A DNA stretch of 64,000 nucleotides from Escherichia coli 042 (lineage in GTDB: Bacteria; Pseudomonadota; Gammaproteobacteria; Enterobacterales; Enterobacteriaceae): assembly GCF_000027125.1 (NCBI RefSeq), contig NC_017626.1; one strand, written 5' to 3'. This document shows, piece after piece, positions 12,762 to 51,599 of this stretch. Numbering within the stretch: position 1 is the stretch's first letter; each line of letters opens with the position of its first letter. The notes under the pieces were generated by a model that was not told where the DNA came from, made no database searches, and saw only the letters and a list, made by a program, of their open reading frames with translations. A program made the translations under genes and the position numbers.

Positions 12762-13660
12762 TTGCGCTCCTCGTCTTTCTCTTCGTGCAGATTATTCTCT
12801 TCCTCATCCGCACGGTTCGGACCGACACCCACGTAGTGGAAGATACTGGCTGCGAAGGTAGCCGCAAAGCCAACGGCTGCGAGCGGTTTCCAGATGCCTT
12901 TCCAGAATTTCACGGTTTCGCTGATTTCCGGGTTCTCCGGCAAGCCATGATACAGATTTGGCTTGTCAGCATGGTGCAGCACGTACATGACGTGTGTACC
13001 ACCAACGCCTGCCGGATCGTACAGACCCGCATTGTCGTAACCGCGGGTTTTCAGCTCAGCAACGCGCTCGCTCGCCAGCGTTTTCATCGACTCTTTCGTA
13101 CCGAAGTGAATCGCGCCCGTTGGGCAGGTCTTCACGCAGGCTGGTTCTTGCCCAACCACCACGCGGTCAACGCACAGCGTACATTTGTAGACGCGGTTGT
13201 CTTCCGGGTTGAGGCGCGGAATGTCGAACGGACAGCCCGCAATGCAATAACCGCAGCCAATGCACTGCTCGGACTGGAAGTCGACGATACCGTTGGCATA
13301 CTGAATAATTGCACCTTCCGCCGGGCACGCTTTCAGGCAGCCTGGATCGGAACAGTGCATACAGCCGTCTTTGCGGATCAGCCATTCCAGTTTGTCGTTC
13401 TGCTCCACTTCCGAGAAGCGCATTACCGTCCACGATTTGGCGCTTAAATCATTGGGGTTGTCGTACACCCCAATGTTATTGCCGACGGTATCGCGAATGT
13501 CGTTCCACTCTGAACACGCCACCTGACAGGCTTTACAGCCGATACAGGTGGTGACGTCGATGAGTTTCGCCACTTCTTCCTGGAAGTCCCGCGCCTGAGG
13601 CGCGGGGGTCAGACCGTTAGTCGCGGAACGACGAATGATATCTTGAGATTGATAAGCCAT
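12758..13660 (-). CDS. fdoH: Formate dehydrogenase-O iron-sulfur subunit
   Basis: 300-aa product with multiple CxxCxxCxxxCP ferredoxin motifs. Confidence 0.95.
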
Positions 13661-28514: not shown

Positions 28515-29498
28515 ATGCAGATAAAACGCTCGATTGAGAAAATCCCGGGGGGGATGATGCTCGTCCCGCTATTCCTTGGCGCACTGTGCCACACCTTCTC
28601 GCCGGAGGCGGGGAAATATTTTGGATCATTCACCAACGGGATGATTACCGGTACGGTGCCCATTCTGGCGGTGTGGTTTTTTTGCATGGGGGCGTCAATA
28701 AAATTAAGCGCGACGGGAACGGTACTGCGTAAATCCGGTACGCTGGTGGTAACTAAAATTGCCGTCGCGTGGGTGGTTGCGGCAATTGCCTCGCGCATTA
28801 TTCCGGAACATGGTGTTGAAGTGGGATTCTTTGCTGGACTTTCAACGCTGGCGCTGGTGGCGGCGATGGATATGACCAACGGCGGACTTTACGCTTCCAT
28901 CATGCAGCAGTACGGCACAAAAGAAGAAGCTGGGGCATTTGTGTTGATGTCATTGGAGTCCGGGCCGCTCATGACGATGATTATTCTGGGCACTGCCGGG
29001 ATTGCCTCGTTTGAACCGCATGTTTTCGTCGGCGCAGTATTACCGTTCCTGGTGGGCTTTGCCCTTGGGAACCTTGACCCTGAATTACGAGAATTTTTCA
29101 GCAAAGCGGTGCAGACGCTGATTCCATTCTTTGCCTTCGCGCTGGGCAATACCATTGATTTGACTGTAATTGCCCAGACAGGTTTGCTGGGGATCCTGTT
29201 GGGTGTGGCAGTAATTATCGTGACCGGTATTCCGTTGATTATCGCCGATAAATTGATTGGCGGTGGCGATGGCACTGCCGGAATTGCCGCTTCCAGTTCC
29301 GCAGGGGCCGCGGTAGCGACACCTGTGCTGATTGCTGAAATGGTGCCTGCGTTTAAACCGATGGCTCCGGCAGCAACTTCGCTGGTAGCGACGGCGGTCA
29401 TTGTGACTTCGATTCTGGTGCCAATTCTTACCTCTATCTGGTCACGTAAAGTCAAAGCCAGAGCGGCGAAAATCGAAATTTTAGGTACGGTGAAATAA
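28515..29498 (+). CDS. kdgT: 2-keto-3-deoxygluconate permease
   Basis: 327-aa membrane protein [24 protein letters not shown]... Confidence 0.9.
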
Positions 29499-34588: not shown

Positions 34589-34647
34589 GTTTTCCTTGCC
34601 ATAGACACCATCCCTGTCTTCCCCCACATGATGTGGGGGTTTTTTTT
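34589..34647 (+). ncRNA. cpxQ: Candidate 3'UTR-derived sRNA CpxQ
   Basis: Position corresponds to the cpxP 3' UTR ending at the intrinsic terminator, where CpxQ is known to be generated by RNase E processing in E. coli/Salmonella. The 5' boundary is approximate. Confidence 0.5.
34621..34647 (+). terminator. Rho-independent terminator of cpxP
   Basis: cccccacatgatgtggggg perfect hairpin followed by a run of T residues. Confidence 0.85.
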
Positions 34648-43839: not shown

Positions 43840-43973
43840 AGCAAACTCTAAGCAGTAAGGAATGGCGCGAAGTGTAGCACAGGGGAAGGGCGGGATTATT
43901 GATGTGTGCGGGGTTGCCCCCGCACGATTCAGGACTACCGGATGCGGCATAAACGCTTCATCCGGTATTTACA

Positions 43974-48675: not shown

Positions 48676-50007
48676 TTATAGGATAAAACGGCTCAGATCT
48701 TCATCTGCCACCAACGCATCCAGATGTTTGCTCACATAATCTGCGTCAATAGTGATGGTTTGACCGCTTAAATCGCTGGCGTCGTAGGAAATCTCTTCCA
48801 TTAAACGCTCCAGAACGGTATGTAAACGACGAGCACCGATGTTTTCGGTAGATTCGTTCACCTGCCATGCCGCTTCCGCGATGCGCTTAATACCGGAGTC
48901 GGTAAACTCGATATTTACGCCTTCAGTCGCCATCAGTGCTTTGTACTGCACGGTGATAGAGGCATTCGGCTCGGTCAGAATACGCTCGAAGTCGCTGGTG
49001 GTCAGTGCCTGCAGCTCAACGCGGATTGGCAGACGACCTTGCAGTTCCGGGATCAGGTCAGACGGTTTCGCAATCTGGAACGCGCCAGAAGCGATAAACA
49101 GAATGTGGTCAGTTTTGACCATCCCGTGTTTGGTGGAAACGGTGCAACCTTCTACCAGCGGCAGCAGGTCACGCTGAACACCTTCACGAGAAACATCCGG
49201 ACCGGAAGACTCGCCGCGCTTACAGATTTTGTCGATTTCGTCGATAAACACGATCCCGTGCTGCTCAACAGCGTCGATAGCGTCTTGCTTCAGCTCTTCC
49301 GGATTCACCAGTTTCGCCGCTTCTTCTTCAATCAGCAGCTTCATGGCGTCTTTGATTTTCAGCTTACGTGCTTTTTGCTTCTGGCCGCCCAGGTTCTGGA
49401 ACATGGACTGCAGCTGGCTGGTCATCTCTTCCATTCCCGGAGGAGCCATAATTTCAACGCCCATCGGTGCTGCGGCAAGATCGATCTCGATTTCTTTGTC
49501 ATCAAGCTGGCCTTCACGCAGTTTCTTGCGGAATGCCTGACGAGCAGCGGACGGTTCCTGCTGCTGTTCGGTCTGTCCCCAGTTGTTTTTAGCAGGTGGG
49601 ATCAGCACGTCGAGAATACGTTCTTCTGCCAGTTCTTCAGCGCGATAACGGTTTTTCTCGATAGCCTGTACGCGTACCATTTTCACGGCGGCATCGGTCA
49701 GATCGCGAATAATAGAATCCACTTCCTTACCGACATAGCCCACTTCGGTGAATTTGGTCGCTTCAACTTTGATGAACGGCGCATTCGCCAGCTTAGCCAG
49801 ACGACGGGCGATTTCAGTTTTACCGACACCGGTCGGGCCGATCATCAGGATATTTTTCGGGGTCACTTCATGGCGCAGCTCTTCGTTGAGCTGCATGCGA
49901 CGCCAGCGGTTACGCAGAGCAATCGCCACAGAACGCTTGGCGTTGTCCTGGCCGATGATGTGCTTATCCAGTTCGCTGACGATTTCGCGTGGGGTCATTT
50001 CAGACAT
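48676..50007 (-). CDS. hslU: ATP-dependent protease ATPase subunit HslU
   Basis: 443-aa AAA+ product with Walker A GPTGVGKT. Confidence 0.97.
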
Positions 50008-50016
50008 GGGAGATCC

Positions 50017-50547
50017 TTACGCTTTGTAGCTTAATTCTTCGATGGTGTGGAAATGGTTGGTATAGATGCAAATGTCGCCTGCAATATCCAACGCCTTTTC
50101 AGCAATTTCACGGGCGCTAAGTTCAGTGTTTTCTAACAGCGCGCGCGCCGCAGCCTGGGCGTAAGGGCCGCCGGAGCCGATAGCAATAAGATCGTTTTCT
50201 GGCTGCACCACGTCACCGTTACCGGTGATGATAAGCGATGCAGTTTCATCCGCGACTGCCAGCAGTGCTTCAAGTTTGCGCAGCATGCGATCGGTACGCC
50301 AGTCTTTTGCCAGCTCAACGGCGGCTTTGACCAGATGGCCCTGATGCATTTCCAGTTTGCGTTCAAACAGTTCGAACAGCGTAAAAGCATCCGCAGTACC
50401 GCCCGCAAAGCCCGCGATGACTTTGTCGTTGTACAGACGGCGGACCTTTTTCACGTTGCCTTTCATTACGGTATTGCCCAACGTGGCCTGACCATCACCA
50501 GCGATGACCACATGGCCGTTACGGCGTACGCTTACTATAGTTGTCAC
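50017..50547 (-). CDS. hslV: ATP-dependent protease peptidase subunit HslV
   Basis: 176-aa product [20 protein letters not shown]... Confidence 0.97.
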
Positions 50548-50615
50548 GAGCTGACCCCTTGGTTACGAATACAGAGTACAAACCCCGTACAAAAGTACGG
50601 GGCATAATGCAATTA

Positions 50616-50644
50616 TAGATGGGGGGGATTTTGAGGGTTTCAAC
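50616..50644 (-). promoter_or_regulatory. Sigma-32 heat-shock promoter of hslVU
   Basis: Reverse strand reads gTTGAAAccctcaaaatccCCCCCATCTA, matching the sigma-32 -35 CTTGAAA and -10 CCCCATNT consensus with about 13-nt spacing; a perfect stem-loop ccccgtac-aaaa-gtacgggg follows in the leader (50583-50602). Confidence 0.7.
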
Positions 50645-51599
50645 CCCCGGCGGCGAGCCGAATGCAGTTTGTATGACCCGCCATCTTCAAGCGATTGAGG
50701 GTGCTGTCTGCGTTCTCTTTGCCTTTCACCGGGCCAATGACCACACGATTCCAGCCATTGTTGGTGGTGATCTTCGAGTCAAAGCCTTCAAACGCCAGCT
50801 GAGCACGTACCGTCTCTGCCTGTTCCGCGCCTCTGAACGAACCGCACTGCACCATCCAGCGGCGTTCGTCTTTTTTCTCCGCCGTCGGTTTTGGCGCGTC
50901 AGCGGCACGAGCAACTGGCGCAGCTTGCTGCGGCTTCGACTGCGCAGTCGTGTGCGCAGGAGTTTGCAGCAGATCCTGGTACGGCTGCTGAGAAGAAGCC
51001 GGTTTAGACTGGCGCGGTTGCGCCTGTACCGGTGCGGCTTGCGACGTACGCGTCTGCTGCTGCCAGCTTTGTTCAGTCGTACGCGACTGCTGAGCCAGGC
51101 GTTGCTGCTCCGCTAATTGCTGCGCCTGACGCTGGCGCTGTAGCGTTTGCTGACGCTGTTCCGGCGTCTGTTCATTCCACGGAACTTCAACCAACTGCGT
51201 TGGCTGCTGGCGCATATCAGCCTGCATTTGCTCAAGGAGCTGGCGTTGTTCTGGTGTTAGTTGCTCCGGCGTTTTCACTTCACCACCGGCAGAAGGTTCT
51301 GTAGGCGCACGCACACCTGGCTGGCGACTTTCCAGCTCTTTGATGTAGCGCCAGCGTTCTTCTGGTTTTGGTGGTAGTCCGTTTCCGGTCACTTTCTGGC
51401 TTTGCAGCGTCTCGGACTCTTCTTTCTTGTGATGCGTAATGAAGTACAGACCACCGATAAAGGTCACAAGAACGGCGGCAGCAATAGCGACCATAGCGGG
51501 AGAAACCGCAGGCAGATTTCGTTGCTTTTTCCGTGAGGTGCTCTTTTTTCGCCGCGAAGGTGCCGGTTGGCTGCGGCGTACATAATCTCGTTGTGCCAC
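50640..51599 (-). CDS. ftsN: Cell division protein FtsN
   Basis: 319-aa product with Gln-rich periplasmic linker and C-terminal SPOR domain. Confidence 0.95.
   Translation of the reverse strand: MAQRDYVRRSQPAPSRRKKSTSRKKQRNLPAVSPAMVAIAAAVLVTFIGGLYFITHHKKEESETLQSQKVTGNGLPPKPEERWRYIKELESRQPGVRAPTEPSAGGEVKTPEQLTPEQRQLLEQMQADMRQQPTQLVEVPWNEQTPEQRQQTLQRQRQAQQLAEQQRLAQQSRTTEQSWQQQTRTSQAAPVQAQPRQSKPASSQQPYQDLLQTPAHTTAQSKPQQAAPVARAADAPKPTAEKKDERRWMVQCGSFRGAEQAETVRAQLAFEGFDSKITTNNGWNRVVIGPVKGKENADSTLNRLKMAGHTNCIRLAAGG

Follow-up and report, generated by a model that had tools for sequence, protein, structure and literature searches.

The element described here lies between ftsN and hslV in a 64,000-nucleotide stretch of Escherichia coli 042 DNA, which was analysed as a whole and is referred to as the window. 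Gene order is ftsN-hslV-hslU, with all three genes encoded on the minus strand according to both the list of open reading frames and the RefSeq annotation. All but one of 5426 complete E. coli genomes (5425) contain the 401 bases around the promoter, which are 100% identical to the corresponding region of E. coli CFSAN061763, where the RefSeq annotation likewise gives ftsN/hslV. In E. coli AST85 (95% identical) promoter and leader are unchanged, and every difference falls within ftsN. Read on the minus strand, the sequence runs GCC GCC GGG GGT TGA AAC CCT CAA AAT CCC CCC CAT CTA TAA TTG CAT TAT GCC CCG TAC TTT TGT ACG GGG TTT G. The features discussed below are the following, all on the minus strand:

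50640-51599, minus strand: ftsN coding sequence, 319 aa, C-terminus ...RLAAGG*, stop codon TGA at 50642-50640 (open reading frame list, RefSeq annotation)
50638-50643, minus strand: sigma-32 -35 element TTGAAA, exact match, bases 2-4 being the ftsN stop codon TGA (-35 and -10 are marked in the legend to Fig. 1A of Lien et al. 2009)
50625-50637, minus strand: spacer CCCTCAAAATCCC, 13 nt to CCCCAT, or 12 nt to CCCCCAT as delimited in the first-pass annotation
50616-50624, minus strand: sigma-32 -10 element CCCCATCTA, with the core CCCCATCT at 50624-50617, exact consensus match
50612-50617, minus strand: perfect TATAAT, overlapping the sigma-32 -10 element, 20 nt from TTGAAA and thus too far away for sigma-70
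50608, minus strand: predicted transcription start A, placed by its invariance in 43 aligned leaders (A17) and its position 8 nt after CCCCATCT
50583-50602, minus strand: hairpin CCCCGUAC-UUUU-GUACGGGG, arms 50602-50595 and 50590-50583, 8 bp with a 4-nt loop
50545-50602, minus strand: match to Rfam RF02401 'ClpQY_promoter' (cmscan, 63.6 bits, E = 1.6e-13, model positions 1-57 of 57)
50571-50582, minus strand: U-rich tail UUUGUACUCUGU after the hairpin, weakly terminator-like in E. coli
50555-50560, minus strand: hslV Shine-Dalgarno sequence AAGGGG, nearly invariant in the alignment of 43 leaders and marked in the legend to Fig. 1 of Lien et al. 2009
50017-50547, minus strand: hslV (clpQ) coding sequence, GTG start at 50547 (open reading frame list, RefSeq annotation)
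48676-50007, minus strand: hslU coding sequence, downstream of hslV (open reading frame list, RefSeq annotation)

The first-pass annotation had proposed a near-perfect sigma-32 promoter for hslVU at this position, and this is borne out by exact promoter elements that are unique in the window together with published dependence on rpoH (PMC2681174). The -10 consensus CCCCATNT is expected 13 to 14 nt (range 12-15) past the -35 element, and CCCCATCT is situated at 13 nt. The pattern TTGAAA-N12-15-CCCCAT occurs exactly once in the 64-kb window, compared with an expectation of 0.05, and all 14 specified bases are matched once. When up to two mismatches are tolerated, about two chance matches are expected. 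One further sigma-32-like match, TTGAAA-N13-CCCACTT with two mismatches, is located at 28819-28845 on the minus strand; it is at chance level and was rejected as a second sigma-32 promoter. For comparison we assembled the hslV loci from 80 other species. All but one of them (79 of 80) carry a sigma-32-like motif upstream of the gene, and CCCCAT is nearly invariant in the 43 aligned leaders. The genetic evidence comes from Lien et al. 2009 (PMC2681174): a clpQ::lacZ fusion needs rpoH, but not rpoS, to be expressed and to respond to heat, and the clpQm1 mutation, a C-to-T exchange in CCCCATCT (yielding CCTCATCT), lowers expression 1.7-fold and abolishes heat induction. Some residual expression is retained in rpoH mutants (PMC2681174). 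Taken together with the mere 1.7-fold drop in basal expression, this indicates that another form of RNA polymerase or read-through from ftsN also contributes. The same promoter was described by Chuang et al. 1993 (ref. 1 in PMC2681174). RNA polymerase carrying sigma-32 (RpoH) would accordingly contact TTGAAA (50643-50638) and CCCCATCT (50624-50617), and transcription would begin a few nucleotides upstream of the hairpin, with A50608 as the predicted position.

The arrangement at the end of ftsN had been described as compact, with the -35 element overlapping the stop codon. This is correct, as TGA (50642-50640) is contained in TTGAAA (50643-50638), and the overlap is conserved across the order. 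Since the -35 hexamer itself supplies the ftsN stop codon, not a single nucleotide separates the gene from its neighbour's promoter. FtsN ends with Gly-Gly, encoded by GGG GGT, and the T-TGA-AA overlap is base-for-base identical in 68 of the 81 sequences that were counted for this feature. It is found in six families, i.e., Enterobacteriaceae, Yersiniaceae, Hafniaceae, Pectobacteriaceae, Erwiniaceae and Morganellaceae, and among the 81 sequences it is not present in Budvicia, two Pantoea, reduced endosymbionts, Vibrionaceae and Aestuariibacter. Most Enterobacterales have thus inherited exactly this overlap. Also note that the five G residues preceding TTGAAA (50644-50649, minus strand; FtsN GGG GGT) are almost invariant in the 68 sequences, and that this near-invariance includes the synonymous third position of the first glycine codon. 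This suggests a constraint at the DNA level upstream of the -35 element, either on top of a required Gly-Gly C-terminus or in its place.

Spacer and -10 element are spanned by a run of seven C residues (50621-50627, minus strand). Two independent studies have recovered changes in it upon adaptation to heat: the heat-evolved strain BM28 carries a 2-bp deletion in the C-run (PMC10044804), and a 1-bp deletion at -74/+19 (window position 50621) arose in two independent lines rescued at 43 °C (PMC7750951). The 43 °C lines also carry mutations in hslV and hslU, frameshifts among them (PMC7750951). Laboratory adaptation to heat has thus hit the run repeatedly, and it behaves as a simple switch that sets hslVU expression through spacing. 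In the record labelled E. coli SCPM-O-B-8794 (L002) it comprises only five C residues.

The only start site of hslV found in print lies 71 nt upstream of the GTG codon (PMC2681174). Counted in the window this is position 50618, a nucleotide within CCCCATCTA. A promoter with this -10 element cannot start there; such a start would leave 15 unpaired nucleotides before the stem. The primer for the '71-nt' construct of Lien et al. in fact begins at 50621, while their counts of 35 nt and 15 nt are exact. The supplements of Kim 2012 and Cho 2014 were searched for a genome-wide start site and contain no entry for hslV. From its sequence context, A50608 is the likely +1. The base preceding it is a pyrimidine in most of the 43 aligned sequences, and a start at this position would give a leader of 61 nt with five unpaired nucleotides before the hairpin. 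An AUG at 50605-50603 (minus strand) opens a frame of 28 codons that overlaps the hslV start out of frame. It was considered as a leader peptide and rejected, as the AUG is not conserved; relatives in the 43-leader alignment have TCTG, TACG or TCAG at this position, and the frame is, on the strength of these comparisons, probably meaningless.

Downstream of the predicted start lies the hairpin, for which a perfect 8-bp stem with a 4-nt loop had been reported at 50583-50602. Stem and loop size were recovered by an inverted-repeat search, and the loop had been given as 'aaaa', a correct reading of the plus strand; in the hslVU transcript the loop is UUUU. In its DNA form the inverted repeat is CCCCGTAC-TTTT-GTACGGGG, positioned 35 nt upstream of the hslV GTG (50547). 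The arms are 100% complementary, six of the eight pairs are G-C, and a G-U pair between 50603 and 50582 lengthens the stem to 9 bp. No other inverted repeat is present within 50500-50700. Perfect GC-rich hairpins of at least 8 bp number 12 in the whole window (11 distinct loci), compared with 3.0 +/- 1.9 in shuffled sequences. Folding of the 22-mer hairpin yields -16.5 kcal/mol. Folding of the leader had been recommended as a check, and it speaks for the structure: the predicted 61-nt leader reaches -21.8 kcal/mol (z = -3.4), and none of 200 shuffled sequences folded as well. An outer helix that pairs UGCA (50611-50608) with a downstream UGUA in the single-sequence fold was discarded, as it receives no RNAalifold support across species. 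As to other hairpins in the window, a perfect 11-bp stem, AAAAAAGCGCCGCACGGCGCTTTTTT, is located at 55499-55524 beyond the 5' end of priA; with an A-run and a T-run on its flanks it has the shape of a bidirectional terminator. Further perfect GC-rich hairpins lie at 13588-13606, 34621-34639 and 43906-43925.

Conservation of the hairpin resides in pairing rather than in sequence. In a MAFFT alignment of 43 leaders, on which covariation was measured, 97.6% of cells are paired and seven of the eight pairs co-vary on both sides. When the partner was slid by one to three columns as a control, pairing fell to 40-57%, and no shuffle attained the observed covariation score. RNAalifold predicts the same helix independently. 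Stems found between species include CCCCGTAC, CCCTGAGC, CCCTGCGC, ACTCCGCGC and CCCCACAC, and those of Serratia, Yersinia and Photorhabdus are much longer. Despite these very different stem sequences the hairpin starts 14 to 16 nt past CCCCAT in 48 of the 69 loci in which one was found. The record labelled E. coli SCPM-O-B-8794 (L002 772-851) carries a compensatory change relative to the window, from GTAC/GTAC to GCAC/GTGC, with AATT as the loop.

The curated Rfam family RF02401, a cis-regulatory leader stem-loop, covers the same 8-bp helix. Its match in the window scores above the gathering cut-off of 42 bits and extends to the GTG codon of hslV, which lies immediately downstream on the same strand. 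The RF02401 model recognises only seven of 20 diverse loci tested. Equally spaced hairpins downstream of the -10 element exist in Tatumella, Dickeya, Edwardsiella, Rosenbergiella, Photorhabdus and Budvicia aquatica (L049). The structural element is therefore broader than the curated family.

What the hairpin does in E. coli has been addressed directly by Lien et al. (PMC2681174). Their inverted repeat, 5'CCCCGTACTTTTGTACGGGG3', matches the window exactly at 50583-50602, and so do their primers, within 50541-50621. Deletion of the repeat (delta-IR) or replacement of one arm by T residues (S-IR) lowers the mRNA level, while a stem of different sequence and equal stability (R-IR) restores it. Compared with the wild type, the delta-IR mRNA has a shorter half-life in rifampicin decay curves. 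Deletion of 40 nt of the leader also lowers mRNA, and a transcriptional fusion loses activity as well. According to the same authors the leader contains no consensus site for RNase E or RNase III. In their pBAD constructs the hairpin was still further away from the 5' end and nevertheless worked, so that simple capping of the 5' end cannot be the whole mechanism. The compensatory covariation described above is consistent with stabilisation by structure and not by sequence. In the model that we favour, the 8-9 bp GC-rich stem-loop (50603-50582) is the first structured element of the transcript and slows decay of the hslVU mRNA, thereby raising its level, with structure being what counts and sequence irrelevant. 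By analogy with the 5' stem-loops of ompA and papA, it would most likely do so by physically hindering RNase E, whose attack or scanning would depend on the 5' end.

In principle, the promoter and its leader could be read in several other ways. That motif and hairpin resemble functional elements by chance draws on nothing more than the general frequency of short motifs. With a promoter pattern that is unique in the window, conservation across some 70 species in which the hairpin has undergone compensatory exchanges, and direct published genetics (PMC2681174), this reading is already refuted for all practical purposes. A more specific proposal concerns the source of basal transcription outside heat shock, which might be a promoter for sigma-70 or sigma-S with the perfect TATAAT, which overlaps the sigma-32 -10 element, as its own -10 element and a start at about 50603-50605, at the base of the hairpin. 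Residual expression in rpoH mutants (PMC2681174) would fit such a promoter, and so would the 2-bp deletion of BM28, which brings TTGAAA and TATAAT to a distance of 18 nt and for which a stronger sigma-70 promoter was predicted by the authors (PMC10044804). In the undeleted sequence, however, TATAAT is 20 nt away from the only -35-like hexamer, and a sigma-70 scan of 50300-50900 returned no promoter on either strand. The hexamer is not conserved beyond Escherichia and Kluyvera-type sequences, with TATACT, TATCAT and ATCTGT as variants elsewhere, an rpoS mutant shows wild-type expression, and mutation of the putative RpoS -10 element is without effect (PMC2681174). We therefore consider a second promoter of this kind unlikely. 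The hairpin could alternatively exert translational control, as an RNA thermometer or, by pairing of its C-rich 5' arm with AAGGGG, as an anti-Shine-Dalgarno switch. Three points speak for this idea: CCCC in the 5' arm is complementary to GGGG in the Shine-Dalgarno sequence, many species have 5' arms rich in C and 3' arms rich in G, and hslVU is a heat-shock operon. Yet the Shine-Dalgarno sequence is outside the hairpin, 23 nt downstream, and is unpaired or weakly paired in the predicted folds, the hairpin is very stable (-16.5 kcal/mol), RNAalifold finds no covarying helix over the ribosome-binding site, and the stems of Photorhabdus and Budvicia lack CCCC. Deletion of 40 nt of the leader hits a transcriptional fusion too, mRNA levels track the effect, and a thermosensitive segment is absent according to Lien et al. 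(PMC2681174). Control of translation is largely refuted and highly improbable.

The most probable of the alternatives is that the hairpin additionally serves the upstream gene, as an intrinsic terminator or as a stabiliser of the 3' end of ftsN transcripts, and so acts in both mRNAs. Its location 37 nt past the ftsN stop codon is typical of terminators, and the overlap of stop codon and -35 element leaves no room for any other. A SMRT-Cappable-seq study (PMC6131387, legend to a supplementary figure) reports a cytR-ftsN unit that ends after ftsN alongside a read-through ftsN-hslV-hslU unit. In several relatives the stem is followed by a canonical tract, with 6-7 T in 8 nt in Tatumella, Pantoea, Rosenbergiella and Hafnia and 5 of 8 in Dickeya, and the separate ftsN of Vibrionaceae is followed by a canonical terminator of its own, which implies that termination after ftsN is ancestral. 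On the other hand, the tail in E. coli is interrupted (UUUGUACU). It fails a simple terminator rule that demands at least five T in the 8 nt directly after the stem, and the hairpin is not listed in the terminator scan. When the G-U pair is counted as part of the stem, the E. coli tail has four T in 8 nt, whereas 20 of 69 other species have a tail that conforms to the rule. In their curated Term-seq data for three conditions, Adams et al. 2021 (PMC7815308) list no minus-strand 3' end at this site, and an efficient terminator at +6 to +35 would abort hslVU transcripts too. In lineages with the two functions apart, it is the promoter and not ftsN that the leader hairpin accompanies, and in one Pantoea sequence (L070) a T-run still follows this hairpin even though ftsN is followed by another one. 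On balance, a contribution of the hairpin to ending or protecting ftsN transcripts is possible, and we hold it to be the less probable case.

The separated lineages are informative in their own right. In Vibrionaceae, Budvicia and two Pantoea the ftsN stop codon and the promoter are 50-105 nt apart, and two hairpins are present. One of them, the hslV leader hairpin, is found 15-19 nt past the -10 element; Budvicia and the two Pantoea have a strong form of it, Vibrionaceae a weaker one. The other follows ftsN and consists of a strong stem in Budvicia and the two Pantoea and of a canonical terminator in three Photobacterium. As the leader hairpin stays with the promoter in these lineages, it belongs to the hslVU transcript, and its travelling together with the promoter fits the published role as a stabiliser. 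The Photobacterium terminators are situated between ftsN and the hslV promoter (L071 1336-1419, L074 1367-1417, L077 1343-1417). They are built as GGATGC-loop-GCATCC with a T-run after and an A-run before the stem, and look bidirectional.

Combining both roles, one may speculate that in most Enterobacterales a single stem-loop does double duty, as a partial terminator or 3' protector for ftsN and as a 5' stabiliser for hslVU, with the sigma-32 promoter nested between the stop codon of ftsN and the terminator of that gene. This combination is a conjecture to which we give slightly less credence than to a role in ftsN transcripts as such. If it were true, each hslVU transcript would read through its neighbour's terminator from about +6, and the strength of the U-tract would set both the leakage of ftsN transcription into hslVU and the attenuation of hslVU itself. 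The tract of E. coli is weak, those of Tatumella and Pantoea are canonical.

The one 3' end that the Term-seq list (PMC7815308, Supplementary file 1) does contain nearby is on the plus strand and therefore antisense to the hslV leader; its MG1655 position 4122347 corresponds to window position 50617. It is 15 nt past the hairpin as read on the plus strand, inside the hslV -10 element, and has no U-tract. Polymerase at the hslV promoter could have produced it, by roadblock or by collision, as could trimming by an exonuclease.

We conclude, with a probability of roughly 0.9, that the element constitutes promoter and leader, stabilising hairpin included, of hslVU (clpQY), the operon for a heat-shock protease of E. 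coli. Promoter and leader hairpin are already known, with a paper of their own (PMC2681174) and an Rfam family (RF02401), and apart from its tight conservation the feature is ordinary. The first-pass annotation, made from the sequence alone, was accurate, and the element represents textbook-level E. coli biology and no discovery. Modest additions can be offered as refinements of the annotation: the order-wide overlap of stop codon and -35 element, covariation of the hairpin beyond the range of the Rfam model, and the separated lineages, which tie the hairpin to the hslVU transcript. Together they frame one question, namely whether the hairpin also terminates ftsN transcription.

In comparison with known systems, the closest counterpart is the hslVU promoter of Lien et al. 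and Chuang et al. It is the same locus with the same sequence, and the primers and the site of the -10 mutation map exactly onto 50600-50650; the sole mismatch is the printed start site relative to the position of the -10 element in the sequence. With intrinsic terminators the hairpin shares a GC-rich stem of 8-9 bp, a 4-nt loop and the distance of 37 nt from a stop codon, and in several Erwiniaceae and Pectobacteriaceae also a T-run after the stem. It differs from them in E. coli by the interrupted U-tract (UUUGUACU) and by the lack of a minus-strand 3' end in the Term-seq list. A comparison with the stabilisers of ompA and papA was also drawn by Lien et al. (PMC2681174). As in the 5' stem-loops of ompA and papA, a GC-rich hairpin near the 5' end prolongs the life of the mRNA by virtue of its structure. 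Unlike these, the hslVU hairpin probably begins at +6 and not at the very 5' end, and the five unpaired nucleotides that a start at A50608 would leave 5' of the stem exceed what classical 5'-terminal stabilisers tolerate in the work on ompA.
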